Below are positions 2,139 through 16,082 of a stretch of DNA of 20,464 nt, piece by piece. Source of the stretch: a virus. Numbering within the stretch: position 1 is the stretch's first letter; each line of letters starts with the position of its first letter. The translations under genes and the position numbers were made by a program. The notes below the pieces were generated by a model. That model was not told the origin of the DNA. It saw only the letters and a list, made by a program, of their open reading frames with translations, and ran no database searches. Location: the UHGV virus genome UHGV-0121713. One strand, given 5' to 3'.

Positions 2139-2708
2139 CTATTTAACATACTTGACTGTTAAACTTATAATTTTACCAATTATTTCAATGTCTTCTATCT
2201 TACATTCAAAGGCTCTGTTTCCACCCTCGACGAAGATTCTTCCACCGGGTAAACGAGTAATGTCACGGATCGTTATTTCGCCATCAATACTTATTACCCA
2301 TTTACCATCACGTATATCATCAAATTCCTTATCACAAATAAATTCAGAATTATTATCTGTGATTACAAAAAGATTCTTGAATGCCGACGGTAGAAATTCT
2401 CTATCGAAAATATAAAAACCGTCTTCACACAAGGCCCCATCAGATAATACATATTTAGCAACTTCCATAGTATTTGTATTACCTGAAGTTTGCTTTGAAC
2501 CATGCCCGGTTGTGAGCCAATTAAGCGAGGTGCCTGTTTCAAGGGCGCACTGGATTACCCATTCTGCTGGGAATGAGTCACGCATGTAGCGTGTGGCGAG
2601 TGTACTTTTAGAGATTCCTAAATGATCGCACAACGCCTGTCGAGTCTTGAATCCATAAGCTTCTACCATGCGCTCTATGGCGCCTCGTCCGCCTTTCTCC
2701 AAATTCAT
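2139..2708 (-). CDS. cI: Phage 186 CI-like immunity repressor (about 189 aa)
   Basis: N-terminal HTH-like segment (GFKTRQALCDHLGISKSTLATRYMRD), size and position between int and a divergent apl/cII operon as in coliphage 186. ATG at 2708 has a GGAG Shine-Dalgarno; the ORF-track start at 2714 is GTG. Confidence 0.75.
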   Translation of the reverse strand: MNLEKGGRGAIERMVEAYGFKTRQALCDHLGISKSTLATRYMRDSFPAEWVIQCALETGTSLNWLTTGHGSKQTSGNTNTMEVAKYVLSDGALCEDGFYIFDREFLPSAFKNLFVITDNNSEFICDKEFDDIRDGKWVISIDGEITIRDITRLPGGRIFVEGGNRAFECKIEDIEIIGKIISLTVKYVK

Positions 2709-2732
2709 GGTCACTCCAAGTGAACTTTTATC

Positions 2733-2761
2733 TTGACGATTTCACCGTGCGATCGTATGTT
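2733..2761 (+). promoter_or_regulatory. Candidate early lytic promoter (pR-like) in the cI/apl switch region
   Basis: TTGACG (2733..2738), 17-bp spacer, TATGTT (2756..2761), directed toward apl/cII. Flanked by CGATCGTAT (2750..2758) and CGATCCGTAT (2784..2793) direct repeats that could be operator elements. Confidence 0.4.
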
Positions 2762-2833
2762 TATGGTGTTCACAAAATACAAACGATCCGTATTCGTCCT
2801 GATTAATCATCATTAAACGAGGAATGTTGCATC

Positions 2834-3055
2834 ATGAGACCTAACATTTCAATCACTCTTACCACGCCTCATGTGACTATTGAACGCTATAGCGAGCTGA
2901 CAGGGCTATCCATCGATACCATCAATGACATGTTGGCTGATGGACGCCTTATCCGTCACCGTCTGCGCAAAGATAAAAAACGCGAAAAAGTGATGATCAA
3001 CATAGCAGCAATGACCGTTGATGCGCTTTCAGAATGCAATCTAAACCTTAATTAG
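2834..3055 (+). CDS. apl: Apl/Cox-like excisionase and transcriptional regulator (73 aa)
   Basis: Small basic protein, first gene of the rightward operon divergent from cI, GAGG Shine-Dalgarno 9 nt upstream. Assignment is mainly positional, by analogy to 186 apl. Confidence 0.55.
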
Positions 3056-3087
3056 TTCGATTCTGAAATACATCAGAGGCATTGACC

Positions 3088-3597
3088 ATGTTTGATTACC
3101 AAGTTTCCAAACATCCACATTTTGATGAAGCCTGTCGTGCATTTGCACTGCGCCACAATCTGGTGCAACTGGCAGAACGTGCAGGCATGAATGTGCAGAT
3201 TCTGCGGAACAAGCTGAACCCAGCTCAGCCTCATTTATTAACCGCACCAGAAATCTGGCTGCTTACCGATCTGACTGAAGATTCAACGCTGGTAGATGGT
3301 TTTCTGGCACAGATTCATTGTCTGCCATGTGTACCGATTAATGAGGTGGCAAAAGAGAAACTGCCACATTACGTCATGAGTGCAACCGCAGAGATCGGGC
3401 GTGTTGCTGCAGGTGCGGTGTCTGGCGATGTAAAAACCTGTGCCGGTCGTCGTGATGCTATCAGCAGCATTAACTCTGTAACACGACTGATGGCGCTGGC
3501 GGCTGTTTCATTGCAGGCCCGTTTACAGGCTAATCCTGCGATGGCGAGTGCAGTTGATACCGTGACTGGCCTCGGTGCTTCATTTGGTTTGCTGTGA
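3088..3597 (+). CDS. cII: Phage CII-like transcriptional activator (186 CII family), about 169 aa
   Basis: Translation [45 protein letters not shown]... matches my recollection of 186 CII in sequence and size. ATG 3088 has an AGAGG Shine-Dalgarno at 8-nt spacing; the ORF-track start at 3082 is TTG. Confidence 0.75.
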
Positions 3598-3604
3598 GGT
3601 GCTT

Positions 3605-3805
3605 ATGCTGACGAAAGAACCATCATTTGCATCGCTGCTGGTTAAACAAAGCCCGGCAATGCATTACGGTCACGGCTGGATCATGGGGGAGGATGGTAAA
3701 CGCTGGCATCCGTGCCGTTCACAAGATGAATTGCTGGCAGAACTATCTACGAAAAAACGGGGGAACAAATGGCTATTGAAGGCACTGCGGCGACTGTTCC
3801 ATTAA
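3605..3805 (+). CDS. Small early-operon phage protein (66 aa), occupying the position of fil in 186
   Basis: ORF in the early operon directly after cII; start ambiguous (GTG 3575 or ATG 3605). Function not recognisable from sequence. Confidence 0.4.
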   Translation: MLTKEPSFASLLVKQSPAMHYGHGWIMGEDGKRWHPCRSQDELLAELSTKKRGNKWLLKALRRLFH

Positions 3806-4110
3806 GCCCCGGTGAACGCCTGAATGGACTTAATCACATTGCGGAGTTAAGGGCGAAAGTTTTTGGCCTGAATATTGAGTCAGAGCTTGAGCGGTTTATT
3901 AAAGATATGCGTGATTCACGGGATATTAATAGCGAACAAAATAAACGGGCACTGGCTGCCATATTCTTTATGGCAAAAATTCCAGCTGAACGTCATAGCA
4001 TCAGCATTAATGAGCTGACCACTGACGAAAAGCGGGAGTTGATTAAAGCAATGAATCATTTTCGTGCAGTGGTGAGCTTATTTCCCAGACGGCTAACCAT
4101 GCCGAATTAA
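3769..4110 (+). CDS. Hypothetical early-operon phage protein (113 aa)
   Basis: ATG with GGGGGA Shine-Dalgarno 5 nt upstream; overlaps the previous ORF end, suggesting translational coupling. Confidence 0.5.
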   Translation: MAIEGTAATVPLSPGERLNGLNHIAELRAKVFGLNIESELERFIKDMRDSRDINSEQNKRALAAIFFMAKIPAERHSISINELTTDEKRELIKAMNHFRAVVSLFPRRLTMPN

Positions 4111-8489: not shown

Positions 8490-8933
8490 GAAATGTTGCC
8501 CCCAGGAGGATTCATTCTAATGGGGGCTAGTTTGGGCAACGAGTGAAACGAGGCGTAAGGTGGGTAATCATTTTGATAAGTGATCGCCCACTTTGTGCCA
8601 AAAGCGGACATCGCAGATATGACAATATGTTAGTCAACCGCGATTAGATCAGTCAGTTGGAGATGGGGGGAAGTTACAAAAACTTGTCGTCCGCCATCTC
8701 CGACTACGGGTATTCTTAACTGTACATGCTCTTTCAATCGATGATTTTTGAGTAAGTGACTAACCTATTGTTTTGATAGTAATTAAACGTATAAACGTGC
8801 GGAGTTAATTTGAAAGTTATGTGTCTATGTTTGACAAGCAAAATTTTAAAGATTGGTTTTATCCACAGGTAATTTATGCTATTAATAGCCTCAAGCCCTG
8901 TAATTATTTTTATTTAAATGGATAAATTTGAAA

Positions 8934-11054
8934 ATGAGTACATATCATAATGATCAGCCAATACTAGGTGGTCAAAATGACCCCGATTTATTAAACAGGC
9001 TCGATTTTGCAAATCACTTGGCAAATATTCTACTATTAAATCACAATGATGATTGCCTTACTGTATCTATAGAGGCAGAGTGGGGATATGGTAAAACGTC
9101 AGTGATAAATCTTATAAAAGGTGCTTTGAATGAAAAGGAGTTCTTACCAATAATAATAGAATATAATCCATGGCTGGCCGGTCAACCTGAATCCTTGATT
9201 CAGGATTTTTTATTACAGTTCTCTTCACAACTAAATATTAAAGACAATTCAAAAGCTGCTTTGGAAGCTTCAAAAGAATTAATTGCATACTCCAATCTCT
9301 TCAGTGTAGCAAAACTTATTCCAGGGACAGAACCTTGGGCATCTATCATAGAAAAAGTCCTCTCTAATTTTGGGAGTGCTACTAAAAAGATTGCTGAATT
9401 AAAAAAACTGGATCTTTTAGGTAGAAAAAAACAAGTAGAGAAGGCAATAAAAAAAATAAAAAATCCTATTGTGGTAATAATTGATGATATTGATCGATTG
9501 ACTCCTGCAGAAACTTTTCAAGTTTTACGATTGGTTAAAGCAGTTGCAGATTTCTCAGGAACTTCTTTTTTACTTGCATTTGATCCTAATTATTTGATTT
9601 CTGTGCTTGATAAAAATAATATCGTCAATTCTTCGGAGTATCTTAATAAAATTGTTCAACTTCGAGTCCCACTTCCTGTAATCTCAGAAAGGGGTATGAA
9701 TGAACTTGCAAATGCAGAACTGGAAAAGATAGCTAATAAATCTTTAACTGACAGATTCGAAAGTGATCAAGAAAGACTAAGCTGGATTTATCATAATTAT
9801 TTTAAAAAACTAATTAAGAATCCGAGAGAGTTAAAAAGATTTTTTAACCATTTGAGATTCGTTTTAGAGCAAATTGAAGGGCAGGTATGTTTTTCTGATC
9901 TCTTTGCTTTATCTCTGGTCGCCACTAAATCGAGTTTGGTATACGAGCATATTAAAAGCACACCAGAGGCATATATAGGGAAGAGATTCACTAATGATGG
10001 CCTTTTGATGGATAAACCTCAAGATATTGTGGATAGATTTAGTGATGAGCGAAATAAGAAACTGAGTAATTTTTCTGATCAAGAGCGTTCAGTGATGCAG
10101 GAACTCTTAGGAGATATTTTCCCACTTCTACAGTCAAGCGGGTATTCTCATTATGGGGTTTCTGATCCCGATACAGCAGGAAGGGTTTCTGCACCACAAA
10201 GGCTTCATATTGCGTTTCATTATAAAACTCCAGCAGGGTATATTTCTGATCATGATATTATCAGTTTCATTAATGGAGATGTCAAAAGAAACGAATTTCT
10301 AAGAGATGTGCTCTCGCAAAATGCAGAAGAAAGATTTTTTGAAATGATGAATAATTATTCGAGTTATTGTAAGGATAATAGTTTTGAAATATTAACGTGT
10401 ATTTATGATACTTTTCTGTTTTCTCAAGAATTGAAATCCTCATTGGAAAGAAACTATGGTTTTTTGACAAAAGATCTTTATAGAAGGATGAATTGGCTCA
10501 CTAATAAGGTAATATCTGAAAGTGATGATAAATATGGGTTAATAAAGGGGGTTGTAGGTAGGCATGAGAATGCGCCACTTGGTGCAGACGTATTATGCCA
10601 AGCTCGTAAACAGATTCAAAATGGATGGAATGACAAAATATGGGTTAGTATTGAAGAATTGGCTGAACTTGAAGGTATCTTTCAACAGGTGGCTATTAAA
10701 GTTTTAAGTGATAAAATATATTTTGATTATCATCTTGAATCTCATATATTTTTCGAATTAAAGAGAGTTTCATCTCAATTTACATCAGAGTTTATTGCTT
10801 CTGTATTATCAAGTGATGGCCTGATTAGGATGTGTGAGATTATTGGTGAAACAGGTAGTGATTCAACAAATGGCCCTTATTTTAAGTTTGATGAAATTTA
10901 CTTCGGGGAAATACTTGATGTGAATGAACTTCGAAATAAAGCGAAAAATTTAGATTTTTCAATTTATCCCACACGCATTCAAGCTGTACTTAAGAGTATT
11001 CTGGATGGACAAAAATATTATTTGAGAGATGCAACTGTTGGTGAAGATTGGTAA
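8934..11054 (+). CDS. KAP-family P-loop NTPase (PifA-like), about 706 aa; candidate abortive-infection/defence protein
   Basis: Walker A EAEWGYGKTS (about 9072..9101) and KAP-type Walker B IVVIIDDIDRL (about 9465..9500). Gene is visibly AT-rich with several A7-A8 tracts, unlike the flanking phage backbone. ORF-track start 8928 is TTG; the first ATG is 8934. Confidence 0.7.
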   Translation: MSTYHNDQPILGGQNDPDLLNRLDFANHLANILLLNHNDDCLTVSIEAEWGYGKTSVINLIKGALNEKEFLPIIIEYNPWLAGQPESLIQDFLLQFSSQLNIKDNSKAALEASKELIAYSNLFSVAKLIPGTEPWASIIEKVLSNFGSATKKIAELKKLDLLGRKKQVEKAIKKIKNPIVVIIDDIDRLTPAETFQVLRLVKAVADFSGTSFLLAFDPNYLISVLDKNNIVNSSEYLNKIVQLRVPLPVISERGMNELANAELEKIANKSLTDRFESDQERLSWIYHNYFKKLIKNPRELKRFFNHLRFVLEQIEGQVCFSDLFALSLVATKSSLVYEHIKSTPEAYIGKRFTNDGLLMDKPQDIVDRFSDERNKKLSNFSDQERSVMQELLGDIFPLLQSSGYSHYGVSDPDTAGRVSAPQRLHIAFHYKTPAGYISDHDIISFINGDVKRNEFLRDVLSQNAEERFFEMMNNYSSYCKDNSFEILTCIYDTFLFSQELKSSLERNYGFLTKDLYRRMNWLTNKVISESDDKYGLIKGVVGRHENAPLGADVLCQARKQIQNGWNDKIWVSIEELAELEGIFQQVAIKVLSDKIYFDYHLESHIFFELKRVSSQFTSEFIASVLSSDGLIRMCEIIGETGSDSTNGPYFKFDEIYFGEILDVNELRNKAKNLDFSIYPTRIQAVLKSILDGQKYYLRDATVGEDW

Positions 11055-11170
11055 TACTTTTATAGGCATGCTTAGAGATGATGGAGTATCTTTTTCTCCC
11101 TTTTGAGGAAGTGATTTCCAACTGGGCATGGATGCCACATCAAATGGACAGTTGTTGTCACCTGTCAGTT

Positions 11171-11240
11171 AGCTGCTATTTGTTTATAGCAGCTGAAAGC
11201 CCACTACATAGTTACACCAGAAGGAGTAACAATGTAGTGG
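11171..11240. repeat. Two adjacent strong inverted repeats (hairpins) in the intergenic region after the KAP gene
   Basis: IR1: agctgctat (11171..11179) / atagcagct (11186..11194), perfect 9-bp stem. IR2: ccactacatagttac (11201..11215) / gtaacaatgtagtgg (11226..11240), 14 of 15 bp paired with AAGGAG in the loop. The 10-mer CCACTACATA recurs at 11478..11487. Confidence 0.5.
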
Positions 11241-11496
11241 ATAGCTAAATTTGACCACCTTAACAGATATGTTAATTTCCCCCCTCGCTCACAGCGGACT
11301 TTCATCTTTGTAAACCCTTATAATTCGCTTTTCAGCGGTCATTCAGATACGGATTTACGCTTTCCTTGGCAGTGCATGACTATGACGCATGAGATCGCAT
11401 GATCGTTTGAGGATCGTTTTTGCTGAGGCCAGCCAGAACTGGCGTGCTTTTGCTTATGTCATGCAGGTGCATGAAAACCACTACATAAAGTGGGCA

Positions 11497-11515
11497 GGCG
11501 TGGCGGGGATACGAG
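11497..11515. other. Candidate cos (cohesive-end) remnant of the P2/186 family
   Basis: GGCGTGGCGGGGA (11497..11509) matches the first 13 nt of the 19-nt P2/186 cohesive end as I recall it (GGCG[A/T]GGCGGGGAAAGCA[C/T]); the next 6 nt diverge. It sits in a local GC-rich patch inside otherwise AT-rich cargo. Not verified by alignment. Confidence 0.3.
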
Positions 11516-11645
11516 CGCGCGCTAACTCTTGGCTTTGTTTCATAATCAAAAATGTGATCATTGAGATTATTCTTAATTTTATGTTTGTCTATGAAATATC
11601 ATTTCGCTTAACATTGTTTGAGTTAGGACTACATGAGAATAAAGA

Positions 11646-12221
11646 ATGCTTTTACCCGTAAGTGTTACATCGTGTGGCTTGTATCACCCCTACTGGCATT
11701 TGGGAGAGCGCAACCCTCATAGCGATGAACTATCAAGGCAGATGATGGATTTTAAGGATGAAAATAATCGTAATCATCAAAGGGCTATTAACCGTTTTTC
11801 TCGATTAGCTATAGATAAGGTTGGGCGGTTAGTAATCAGAGGTGGCGGTGGGCGTTTTGTTGAGTCTCCTTTTTCGATAGCAGTCGTCCCATCTCACACT
11901 GAAGGCAGAATTTCACCGGCTTTGATTGAGGTCGCCGAGCGAATCGTAAATGTTCACCGTCGGGGCATTGTTGATTGCTGTTTGGAAAGAACACGCACTG
12001 TTCCTAGCGCACATCGTGAAGGAGGAGATCGCTCAATTACTGGTCACATGTCTAGTATCAGAGTTAGGGGTGGTAACCTCATGGGGCGAAATGTGTTACT
12101 ACTAGATGATGTTAAAACAACAGGCGGTAGTTTGTCTGCGTGTTTTTATTTACTGGAGTCTGCAGGAGCTGGAGTTATAATGCCATTAGCTCTGCTAGAA
12201 ACTGCAAACTATGAGGAGTAG
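11646..12221 (+). CDS. Type I phosphoribosyltransferase (PRTase) domain protein, 191 aa; candidate defence effector (ShosT-like / ComF-like)
   Basis: PRPP-binding signature VLLLDDVKTTGGSL (hydrophobic stretch-DD-x-x-TTG). In-frame TAA two codons upstream fixes the 5' limit. Overlaps the next gene by 11 nt. Confidence 0.7.
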   Translation: MLLPVSVTSCGLYHPYWHLGERNPHSDELSRQMMDFKDENNRNHQRAINRFSRLAIDKVGRLVIRGGGGRFVESPFSIAVVPSHTEGRISPALIEVAERIVNVHRRGIVDCCLERTRTVPSAHREGGDRSITGHMSSIRVRGGNLMGRNVLLLDDVKTTGGSLSACFYLLESAGAGVIMPLALLETANYEE

Positions 12222-13185
12222 CAAAGTGCACTCAGAAGAATTAAAAAATACACTTGGATTAGCTATTCAAATCGGGAAGCTAGCATCTGATCAAAGTGTA
12301 TTGAAATTCTTTGAGCTTATTGATTTTGATGTTATTCGTGATATACGCGACTTAACTGAGATGGTTAATAGCCACGGGTTTCTAAAAGATAAAATATCTG
12401 AGACTGATTTTCTAATAGCGAATGCTGAATTGGAGAACCACCATGTTAATGGTGTGGAGCTAATACCATATGGGTCTGAATTCTATCCTCTTAGTTTAGC
12501 GTTTACTCCTAATCCACCATCAATTCTCTACATAAAAGGGGATAAAAGTATACTAAAAGAATTGCCGGGTGTCGCAATTGTAGGATCCCGTGATACTTCC
12601 CCTGCAGGGGAAGAAATAACGAGGCGAATCACTAATCAGATAGTGTCTGCTGGGTATATTGTTGTAAGTGGGTTAGCAATAGGCACTGATGCGAATGCTC
12701 ATAAGGCAACGTTACAAGCAAAAGGAAAAACCATTGCTGTCTTGGCGCATGGTCTTGAGGAGGCTAAGCCGAAGCAAAACAGTCGACTTGCTCAAGAGAT
12801 TCTGGATAAAGGTGGTGCATGGATTTCTGAGTATCCTATGGGGCGACCGGCCCAGAAACAATCATTTGTACAAAGAAATCGGATACAAGTTGGATTATCT
12901 GCAGGTTCAATTTTAATCGAGGCTGCGTTAAATAGCGGAACGATAACTCAAGCTGAGTTTGCAAATAAGGCTAAAAGACCAGTGTTTGCGGTTGTACCTC
13001 ACCTACCTAATAATCCGCTTAATCTTAATTGTGAGGGAACAGTTGATTTAGTTAAGAGCAACATGGCTAGAGCGTTAAAAACAAAACGGGATTATGATGA
13101 TGTGATTATGATCATAAATGAGTCTCGGGAGTATTTGTTAGAGCTAAAATGGCCAGGGAAACAGAGTACATTAGACTTGATTTAA
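12211..13185 (+). CDS. DprA/Smf-like (SLOG-superfamily Rossmann) protein, about 320 aa; candidate defence partner (ShosA-like)
   Basis: DprA core motifs VAIVGSRDTSPAGEE and IVVSGLAIGTDANAHKA, then TIAVLAHGLEE and RNRIQVGLS. Start is ATG 12211 or GTG 12226 (the latter has a GGAG Shine-Dalgarno at 7-nt spacing). Confidence 0.75.
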   Translation: MRSSKVHSEELKNTLGLAIQIGKLASDQSVLKFFELIDFDVIRDIRDLTEMVNSHGFLKDKISETDFLIANAELENHHVNGVELIPYGSEFYPLSLAFTPNPPSILYIKGDKSILKELPGVAIVGSRDTSPAGEEITRRITNQIVSAGYIVVSGLAIGTDANAHKATLQAKGKTIAVLAHGLEEAKPKQNSRLAQEILDKGGAWISEYPMGRPAQKQSFVQRNRIQVGLSAGSILIEAALNSGTITQAEFANKAKRPVFAVVPHLPNNPLNLNCEGTVDLVKSNMARALKTKRDYDDVIMIINESREYLLELKWPGKQSTLDLI

Positions 13186-13209
13186 AGCGCCTCTTTTAGA
13201 GGCACTTTG

Positions 13210-13866
13210 CTAAATTTGATATCTCTCGAATTTTATAATTTCTTCACCGCTCCAATGATTAAATTCTTTCATTCTTTTTTGTAATGGTAATAATTCATTT
13301 TTCACAAATACCTTACTAGCTTTTTCTACATCCCCAAATCCCCCAACATTATTAGGCATTATCCCCATCATCTGTGGCGGAACGCGATGTGCTGCCATCA
13401 TGTCATCCCGGCTCACGTTCTTGATATTTAGAAACTCATCCTTCGCCGCAACTTCTGACAAAGGGATGATCTGAAGGCCGTCCTTTTTGCCGTTAGGCGA
13501 GTACATAAACAGGTTGCGGAAGTTACCCGGACCTTTGGCACTTTTCATTGCATTGCGGAGGTTGTTCACGTCCTCCTGGTTCTGCGCAGCATCGGTCATG
13601 TACATGATGAAGCCTGCATGACTACCGTTAATGTAATACTTGCGGCGGAACAGCGTGGCGGACTCATTGAGCAGGGCGGACGGAATGGCAGAAAGATAGC
13701 TGGGCAGGCCGTAGATCTCCTGGTTAATGTCCGGTTCCATCAGATGAAAAATGCTGCCTTTCGTGAACTGATACGGCTGGGTTGTCATACCGTATTGCAC
13801 AAACCAGTAGGTATCCAGGTCTAACCCGCGTCGGGTGTATTTTGCCAGAGCAGGCTCAAGGGCGAC
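13210..13866 (-). pseudogene. Q: 3' fragment of the portal gene Q (P2 gpQ family), 5'-truncated by deletion
   Basis: Encodes about 218 aa of portal-like C-terminal sequence (...YINGSHAGFIMYMTD...LQIIPLSEVAAKDEF...). The open frame runs upstream into unrelated sequence; the N-terminal third and the adjacent terminase P are absent. Upper boundary is approximate. Confidence 0.65.
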
Positions 13867-14054
13867 AACGACAACACCGGATTGAGGAACTGAAACGTGA
13901 GAACGAGGATTTACGCCGCTGGGCTGATACACCTTTGCCTGCTGACATTATCCGGCTGCGGGAACGCCCCACACTCACCGGAGGTGCAGATTACCGTCAG
14001 TGGTTGTCCGCGAGTGACGCCGTGTCGGCTGGGACAGGCAGCGCCGCGCACTAA
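13866..14054 (+). pseudogene. lysB: 3' fragment of lysB (Rz-like inner-membrane spanin), 5'-truncated
   Basis: Coiled-coil, charged C-terminal peptide ...HRIEELKRENEDLRRWADTPLPADIIRLRERP directly upstream of R, as in P2 (lysA-lysB/lysC-R-S). No holin or endolysin upstream. Boundary approximate. Confidence 0.45.
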
Positions 14055-15088: not shown

Positions 15089-15295
15089 ATGAACGCACAA
15101 TTAACCGAAATCATGCGCCTTATCACCAACCTGATCCGCACTGGTGTAGTCACCGAAGTGGACCGGGAAAACTGGCTTTGCCGGGTGAAAACGAGCGACC
15201 TTGAAACCAACTGGATTAACTGGCTGACGCTGCGCGCGGGTAAACGCGCTGCCGCAGGACAAGCGCCTGTCTGCCATGACTATGTTGTTTGGTAA
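15089..15295 (+). pseudogene. V: 5' fragment of baseplate spike gene V (68 codons), truncated
   Basis: MNAQLTEIMRLITNLIRTGVVTEVDRENWLCRVKTSDLETNWINWLTLRAGK resembles the P2 gpV N-terminus; the frame ends after 68 codons where tape-measure-like sequence begins in another frame. Confidence 0.6.
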
Positions 15296-16082
15296 AGAGT
15301 TTGGCGATGACGCGGCGAAACTGGCAAACAACCTGCCGGAACTGCAGCGTCAGTTAAAACTGACAGCGGGCAATGATGCGCTTGGCTCCATGCAGAAAGA
15401 ATCCGACATTAACAAGGATTCACTTTCTGCGCAGTGGTTGCTGGTCAAAACCGGAGCGCAGAACACCTTCAGCAGCCTGGGCGAAACGCTGCGCCAGCCG
15501 CTGATGGATATTCTGTACACGGTGAAAAGCATCACGGGAGCGTTGCGCCGCTGGGTGGAAGCTAACCCGGAACTGACAGGCACACTGATGAAAGTATCGG
15601 CTGTTGTGGCTGCGGTTACCGTCGGCCTCGGCACCTTAGCGGTGGCGCTGGCTGCAGTGCTGGGGCCGCTGGCAGTGATCCGTCTGGGATTCTCTGTGTT
15701 GGGTATCAAAACGTTATCTTCCGTTACGGCAGCAGTAACTCGAACCAGCAGCGCGTTGTCCTGGCTGGCTGGCGCACCACTGGCACTGCTGCGACGCGGG
15801 CTTGCTTCATCGGGCAACGCCGCAGGTTTACTTACTGCGCCGTTGTCGTCTTTGCGCCGCACGGCATCACTGACGGGAAATGTCCTGAAAACTGTAGCAG
15901 GTGCGCCGGTTGCACTTTTGCGGTCTGGATTATCCGGTTTACGTGCTGTTGCTGTGATGTTTATGAATCCTCTGGCGGTACTGCGCGGTGGACTGGCCGC
16001 CGCAGGCACGGTGCTGCGAGTACTGGCATCTGGTCCACTGAATCATTGTCCGATATGTTCGGTGATCTCAGTGCGCAACTGA
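15276..16082 (+). pseudogene. T: Internal fragment of tail tape-measure gene T
   Basis: Ala/Leu/Gly-rich repetitive hydrophobic segment typical of tape-measure proteins; only about 268 codons, abutting the V fragment. W, J, I, H, G, FI, FII, E and most of T/U are absent. Confidence 0.55.

Follow-up and report, generated by a model that had tools for sequence, protein, structure and literature searches.

What do a phosphoribosyltransferase (PRTase) gene and a dprA-like gene, lying end to end, do in a prophage of Escherichia coli? The question is raised by the virus genome UHGV-0121713, a stretch of 20,464 nucleotides (hereafter the window, meaning the whole stretch) which consists of a P2-like E. 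coli prophage and has 100% identity to four strains, BE311 among them. An earlier note on this DNA had described the two genes as a pair resembling the ShosTA toxin-antitoxin (TA) system, with the warning that the proteins might be smaller than those of the known system or stand in another arrangement. Both open reading frames (ORFs), of 191 and 324 amino acids, are present on the + strand (Table 1). The likeness to ShosTA was upheld by matches to the PADLOC profiles of ShosT and ShosA, by profile-profile alignment, by ShosT structures as the best fold matches and by a hotspot of P2-like phages shared with the prototype. The warning was also apt, in that the first protein has a single domain and the two genes stand in the opposite order to those of the prototype. 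Taken together, the pair is probably a minimal, short-toxin member of the ShosTA family, a two-gene TA and abortive-infection module carried by a prophage; in keeping with this reading, the two products are called the toxin and the antitoxin below.

The toxin: a short phosphoribosyltransferase

The prototype used for comparison, and the only characterised one, is ShosTA of E. coli APEC O1 (Rousset 2022, pFR105; Pu 2025, PDB 8zva-8zvd; Yang 2026, PDB 9vzo and 9w2p), the 'DprA + PRTase' system of pFR105 that Rousset et al. validated and found active against T7 and lambda. The toxin of the window is predicted to be a type I PRTase with the motif LLLDDVKTTGGS in the loop that binds phosphoribosyl pyrophosphate (PRPP), given over residues 149-162 as NVLLLDDVKTTGGS. 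The PRPP motif of the earlier note was confirmed in an alignment of 23 homologues, in which D155, T158, G160 and S162 are invariant and D154 nearly so; the motifs VPSH (81-84) and GDRS (127-130) and H134 are likewise invariant in the family, and the C-terminal YEE is conserved. The Pfam family Pribosyltran is matched at 18.6 bits, below its cut-off of 26.3, and the PADLOC ShosT model PDLC03962 at 51 bits (E 3.6e-14; profile positions 62-211 of 237). In a Foldseek search of the PDB with the AlphaFold2 model of the toxin (predicted local distance difference test, pLDDT, 90.6), the top three matches are all ShosT (8zvc, 8zvd and 8zvb; E 2.8e-6, template modelling score ~0.55, 16-19% identity), directly followed in fourth place by ComFC of Helicobacter pylori (7p0h).

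When the profile of 23 short PRTases was aligned by HHalign to that of 26 long ShosT proteins, the probability was 97.7% (E 1.4e-12, 168 columns), and toxin residues 14-188 fell on residues 166-364 of the prototype, that is, on the whole PRTase domain; the match starts next to the published domain boundary of ShosT at residue 165 (PMC11961720). Conserved positions coincide in this alignment: among the residues that bind PRPP, H84 corresponds to H240, R115 to R274, D154/D155 to D331/D332, T158 to T335 and G160 to G337, and S121 in addition corresponds to S281. By these comparisons the predicted toxin is the PRTase domain of ShosT without the N-terminal HAD-like pyrophosphatase domain.

The antitoxin: a DprA-like protein

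The earlier note had also recognised a DprA core in the second protein, and this is borne out by a Pfam DNA_processg_A match of 204.5 bits and by an AlphaFold2 model with the DprA fold (pLDDT 92.1). The PADLOC ShosA model PDLC03961 matches at 235 bits (E 2.8e-70). In the model, residues 4-79 form an N-terminal helical (SAM-like) domain and residues 82-289 the Rossmann core, and the C-terminal end is made up of a helix (292-310) with a disordered tail (311-324). The same layout, with a SAM domain, a DprA core, the extra helix alpha14 and a disordered C-tail, was described for ShosA by Yang et al. (PMC12961424). Identity to APEC O1 ShosA is 36%, over the Rossmann core only. In ShosA, R139 and R234 are essential for binding of single-stranded DNA (ssDNA) and for antitoxin activity, and R261 is non-essential; the two essential residues correspond to R127 and R222 of the antitoxin, both of which are invariant in 33 homologues.

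Membership of the ShosTA family

PADLOC holds models of two tiers for this system: narrow ones fit the APEC O1 proteins (PDLC03012, 973 bits; PDLC02997, 765 bits), and broad ones also fit the proteins of the window and their relatives, including the homologous pairs of Pectobacterium and Shewanella. This evidence consists of matches to the individual profiles, as distinct from a system call by the thresholds of PADLOC. Judged from sequence, the pair is a member of the broad ShosTA kind as tools based on hidden Markov models (HMMs) define it, and not of the APEC O1 prototype subfamily. With the prototype it shares the organisation as a PRTase toxin with a DprA-like antitoxin, the insertion site between gpA and portal genes of P2, a homologous PRTase domain, the two aspartates of the PRPP loop and both essential ssDNA-binding arginines. 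It differs in that the toxin has 191 instead of 424 amino acids, lacks the N-terminal HAD/pyrophosphatase domain and is only ~18% identical.

Several observations weigh against reading the pair as a ShosTA-family module. The toxin is not matched by the narrow prototype model PDLC03012, and K280 and R285, which contact PRPP in the prototype, have no aligned counterpart in it by HHalign. A BLASTP alignment of the toxin with prototype ShosT covers only 44 amino acids around the PRPP loop, and a profile of the toxin family matched only the 40-amino-acid PRPP loop of PDB sequences, with ShosT scoring no better than housekeeping PRTases. The genes run toxin-antitoxin instead of antitoxin-toxin, and in the opposite orientation within the hotspot. 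Bona fide DprA and ShosA are equally near to the antitoxin by sequence and by fold (Foldseek: DprA 3maj, E 9e-21; ShosA 8zva, E 2e-20, 311 columns). The dimer-interface residues L181/F182 of the prototype are replaced by Q169/A170, and R261 by E249, and because of the former substitution the dimer contacts of the antitoxin, if any, would differ from those of the prototype. Finally, a scan for the sigma-70 consensus upstream of the pair gave no match on the + strand. Since pairwise phmmer searches of the toxin against PDB sequences also returned no match, and since the family profile was unspecific, profile-profile and fold comparisons were required to show the relationship with ShosT.

By analogy with APEC O1, the PRTase would bind PRPP and perturb purine and nucleotide metabolism, with replication stress, filamentation and death as the outcome. 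In the manner of a type IV TA system, the DprA-like protein would leave the toxin itself unbound and counter its effects by way of ssDNA binding and RecA. Infection would tip this balance, either because phage ssDNA or replication intermediates appear or because host shut-off coincides with an unstable antitoxin tail; the toxin would then be released, and the infected lysogen would abort the infection. Because the toxin has no pyrophosphatase domain, it would act without a step for removal of inorganic pyrophosphate (PPi). A toxin consisting of the PRTase alone is nevertheless plausible, because in the prototype the pyrophosphatase-dead mutant R56A keeps most of its toxicity (PPi removal boosts toxicity only modestly), whereas the D331A/D332A substitutions abolish it (PMC11961720).

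Conservation of both genes and their junction

Both genes are clearly genuine and under purifying selection, as indicated by the conservation of length and start, the pattern of substitution and the confident AlphaFold2 models. The 23 aligned toxin homologues, from at least eight genera, keep a length of ~191 amino acids and the start Met, and between the pair and its copy in E. coli E2348/69 (97% DNA identity) there are 18 synonymous changes and one non-synonymous. In a database of 5.8 billion proteins the toxin has 42 relatives, nearly all of 189-193 amino acids, from Citrobacter, Enterobacter, Dickeya, Yersinia, Hafnia, Pectobacterium, Kluyvera and Shewanella. The broader short-PRTase family comprises 1041 representatives of 50%-identity clusters at E <= 1e-10; among the representatives listed, most are standalone proteins of 175-200 amino acids and some are C-terminal fusions in proteins of up to ~700, and all those sampled match the broad ShosT model. 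The 111 long-form relatives found all have ~400-427 amino acids, except for a few partial ones, and carry the HAD/pyrophosphatase domain, and for this reason the short and long forms of the toxin appear to be separate clades.

The junction of the two genes puts one stretch of sequence to two uses. The toxin gene ends in TAT GAG GAG TAG (TATGAGGAGTAG, region 12210-12228), and this YEE* end doubles as the ribosome-binding site of the antitoxin gene, since the last two Glu codons spell GAGGAG, a canonical Shine-Dalgarno sequence. The own Shine-Dalgarno sequence of the toxin gene is weak. The 11-nt overlap reported in the earlier note is correct for the longest ORFs; as the true spacing it probably does not hold, because GAGGAG fits the in-frame GTG at 12226, and the gene calls of homologues, among them those of Pectobacterium (TTG), Aeromonas (GTG) and Klebsiella, begin at the aligned position and give 319-320 amino acids. 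The pattern TATGAGGAGTA[GA] followed by GTG or TTG recurs in Dickeya and Pectobacterium. With the GTG start the antitoxin would have 319 amino acids and its gene would begin 4 nt after the toxin stop. Translational coupling of the two genes is plausible under either start, and is a reasonable inference given that the end of the toxin gene supplies the ribosome-binding site of the antitoxin gene.

Relatives in other prophages and islands

Nine related loci were examined, and all of them are P2-like prophages, Mu-like prophages or islands. Dickeya and Pectobacterium carry the toxin-then-antitoxin pair in the same gpA-portal slot of their P2-like prophages. In Shewanella algae (loci L006 and L007, 6001-7535) it lies in a Mu-like prophage between Mor and lysis genes, and in Aeromonas (L009 and L010, 4405-5960) in a Mu-like prophage between virion-morphogenesis and protease genes. 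In Vibrio parahaemolyticus it is found next to resolvases, and in Alteromonas next to an AAA_15/AAA_21 gene pair, in each case in an island. The gene 5' of the antitoxin homologue at these loci is a member of the short-PRTase family (E 1e-46 to 1e-96). Because the Mu-like prophages carry the pair at two different insertion points, the module appears to move between unrelated temperate phage families.

In Alteromonas (L013, 3823-4341; L014, 1-474) a gene for a HAD_2 hydrolase lies 94 bp 5' of the short PRTase/DprA pair, an arrangement that recalls the HAD-like domain of long ShosT. The idea of a 'split ShosT' was rejected, in that the gene scores 73 bits to Pfam HAD_2 and only 16 bits to the long-ShosT profile. 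No HAD_2 gene accompanies the pair at any other locus examined, and the one in Alteromonas is probably a flanking gene.

The hotspot and the host prophage

The interval between gpA and the portal gene of P2 is a hotspot that harbours interchangeable anti-phage systems, as described by Rousset et al. (PMC9122126), and the toxin/antitoxin pair is cargo inside it. In the window the genes follow in the order integrase/CI, Dam methylase, replication endonuclease gpA, a DinI-like gene, a KAP NTPase gene, the PRTase gene, the DprA-like gene and the portal gene; in the hotspot of APEC O1 the order is portal, ShosA (1659-2642, 327 amino acids), ShosT (2644-3918, 424 amino acids) and gpA. The cassette of the window is present in only 33 of 5426 complete E. 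coli genomes, as against more than 1200 for the flanking backbone. A search of window positions 1-20464 for the P2 cohesive-end sequence GGCGAGGCGGGGAAAGCAC, with up to 3 mismatches allowed, gave no match; its place in APEC O1 is between portal and ShosA genes.

Table 1. Positions of the gene pair and of neighbouring features in the window.
Feature	Position	Strand	Remarks
Short ShosT-like toxin gene	11646..12221	+	ORF; 191 amino acids; single-domain type I phosphoribosyltransferase (predicted)
ShosA-like antitoxin gene	12211..13185	+	DprA fold; 324 amino acids from ATG 12211, or more probably 319 from GTG 12226
GAGGAG Shine-Dalgarno for antitoxin	12213..12218	+	In last two Glu codons (YEE*) of toxin; 7 nt 5' of in-frame GTG 12226
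Upstream leader	11286..11645	+	Travels with the cassette; homology to E2348/69 (no KAP gene there) begins at 11286
KAP-family P-loop NTPase gene	8928-11054	+	708 amino acids; PADLOC PifA E 6.7e-65; Pfam KAP_NTPase 159 bits
Small hairpin GCCTCT-TTT-AGAGGC	13189..13203	.	In the spacer between the converging antitoxin and portal genes; read from the sequence
Deletion junctions relative to BE311	13864-13869, 15239-15243, 16039-16040		Each with 2-6 bp of shared sequence

The prophage in the window is defective and decayed, with its defence cargo intact. Relative to the intact prophage of BE311, to which it is otherwise 99.9-100% identical, it lacks ~6.9 kb from the N-terminus of the portal protein through the lysis genes, 8.7 kb from baseplate V to the middle of the tape-measure gene, and 1.3 kb in the tape measure/gpU region, a total loss of ~17 kb of structural genes. 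The portal gene converges on the antitoxin gene, with 24 bp between the two stops. The small hairpin in this spacer may, with low confidence, be a bidirectional terminator; it has no T-run, and the terminator scan did not flag it.

The KAP NTPase gene is a second, independent defence-type cargo of the same hotspot. Its product resembles PifA, the T7-exclusion protein of the F plasmid. The gene was considered as a third component of the pair and rejected, since E2348/69 has the pair and no KAP gene. That it is separate cargo is argued by the homology to E2348/69, which resumes at window position 11286, and by a strong hairpin with 18-nt arms (11201-11240) 3' of the KAP gene; the KAP cassette itself spans ~8606-11285 and is absent from E2348/69. 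The leader, which travels with the toxin/antitoxin pair, presumably holds its promoter, although promoter and terminator scans upstream of the pair returned no useful hit on the + strand. Within the leader, the non-coding segment 11371-11527 shares ~93% identity with many P2-like phages from Klebsiella, Yersinia, Salmonella and E. coli, where it lies next to the DinI-like gene; it is a conserved segment of the P2-like backbone bordering the variable slot, and possibly a recombination anchor for cassette exchange.

Comparison with other DprA-phosphoribosyltransferase pairs

Three other systems combine related components. PsyrTA (RqlHI) also consists of a DprA-like antitoxin and a toxin with a PRTase domain, and the window toxin matches the C-terminal PRTase part of the PsyrT model (positions 577-686 of 689; E 4.9e-6, 23 bits) and the antitoxin the PsyrA model (105 bits). 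These scores are well below those to the ShosT and ShosA models, however, and the large N-terminal RecQ-like helicase of PsyrT is absent here. Cluster 98 in the catalogue of variable-locus gene clusters of Rousset 2022 (SLOG LDcluster4 + PRTase), a candidate pair, is likewise listed as cargo of mobile-element hotspots, with a standalone PRTase, of ~193 amino acids, that matches the same broad ShosT model, and with a partner of the SLOG/DprA superfamily; the partner has only ~185 amino acids and a SLOG domain alone, whereas the window encodes a full protein with SAM and DprA domains. The third is the ComFC-DprA pair of natural transformation, which has the same two folds, both ComFC (7p0h) and DprA structures being found among the fold matches. 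In competent bacteria, ComFC and DprA cooperate on the ssDNA that is taken up.

If the two were true competence genes, ComFC and DprA/Smf, located in a prophage by chance, this would account for the RefSeq label of DprA, for one Kluyvera homologue of the toxin named 'ComF family protein' and for the alignment of the comF model over residues 28-183. This explanation is effectively refuted. The NCBIfam scores are all below the curated cut-offs (TIGR00732 dprA, 186.4 against 191.15; PRK10736, the E. coli-type DprA, 168.6 against 495; TIGR00201 comF, 25.5 against 233.55), and no com genes lie beside the pair at any related locus examined. The N-terminal region of the toxin family has a single conserved Cys, so that the toxin lacks a four-Cys zinc finger of the ComFC type. 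Clustering with competence proteins and adjacency to com genes, which the earlier note had named as grounds for abandoning its proposal, are thus replaced by scores below the DprA and ComF thresholds and by contexts that are all prophages or islands, rather than a com operon. The view that the 191-amino-acid ORF is a decayed remnant of long ShosT in a non-functional locus is largely refuted as well. It could appeal to the omission of the ORF by RefSeq PGAP in BE311 and E2348/69, to the weak Shine-Dalgarno sequence and to the degraded state of the prophage. The idea was rejected because length and start are conserved in homologues as far apart as those of E. coli and Shewanella, because the genes are under purifying selection and because the fold is modelled with confidence; moreover, the mostly standalone proteins listed in the broader family have a similar size, no trace of a HAD domain was found upstream by tblastn and HMM searches, and the long form is a separate clade.

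Two explanations that accept a functional pair were also weighed. If the pair served the DNA metabolism of the phage and not as a TA module, with the DprA-like protein loading RecA on phage ssDNA and the PRTase salvaging or modifying nucleotides, this would agree with an antitoxin fold as near to real DprA as to ShosA, with the retained ssDNA-binding arginines, with the confinement of the pair to temperate phages and islands, and with the ComFC fold match and the cooperation of ComFC and DprA in transformation. Such a role is very unlikely, however, as the pair sits outside the replication modules of two unrelated phage types, where it takes up variable 'moron' positions, is rare among genomes that carry its flanks, and has its best HMM and fold matches in ShosTA. 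An addiction module that stabilises the prophage or its remnant by post-segregational killing, with no meaningful anti-phage role, is unlikely too, albeit with more in its favour: ShosTA was first described as a TA pair, its toxin and antitoxin behaviour is well documented, and a cassette left intact in a prophage stripped of its structural genes is what an addictive module would produce. On the other side stand the swapping of many validated defence systems in the same slot, the PifA-like neighbour and the protection of six orders of magnitude against T7 afforded by the prototype (PMC11961720). Addiction and defence are mutually compatible roles, and a ShosTA-type TA and abortive-infection module remains the probable identity of the pair.

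Annotation and significance

The earlier note had predicted that automated annotation would hide the pair under competence names. For DprA this proved right, the antitoxin being called 'DNA-processing protein DprA' by RefSeq PGAP in BE311 and E2348/69; the name ComF was not found in E. coli, where the PRTase is omitted or called a 'hypothetical protein'. In the two records checked (L001, 11756-12911; L002, 5818-6910) the toxin ORF is not called at all, and the same is true of one assembly of V. parahaemolyticus (L012, 4142-5000). At least 1000 contigs of GenBank and IMG encode the exact 191-amino-acid protein, under the names 'hypothetical protein' or 'predicted amidophosphoribosyltransferase' and with start calls giving 182 to 226 amino acids. 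In the hotspot catalogue of Rousset et al. the locus is listed as 'KAP_NTPase + DNA_processg_A' or as DNA_processg_A alone (WP_001324531; PMC9122126), and the pair went unrecognised there because the catalogue was built from annotated proteins. Surveys of annotated proteins see a lone 'DprA', a gap that extends to the reference enteropathogenic E. coli strain E2348/69.

A search of the literature found no published description of a short-toxin form of ShosTA. With slightly less than even confidence, we suggest that such pairs form a distinct 'minimal ShosTA' clade, in which a PRTase-only toxin without a pyrophosphatase domain is followed by an antitoxin coupled to it through the Shine-Dalgarno sequence in the YEE* end. 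The clade would be cargo of P2-like and Mu-like phages across Gammaproteobacteria, possibly with another acceptor or trigger, and would be undercounted in surveys based on RefSeq proteins, because the toxin gene is often uncalled and the antitoxin labelled DprA. In other respects the pair adds to a defence family and a hotspot that are both already known, and would be no surprise to the specialist. It shows the PRTase domain alone, with no fused pyrophosphatase, to be the conserved core of ShosT-type toxins, and the protein of 191 amino acids offers a minimal enzyme with which to find the acceptor substrate.

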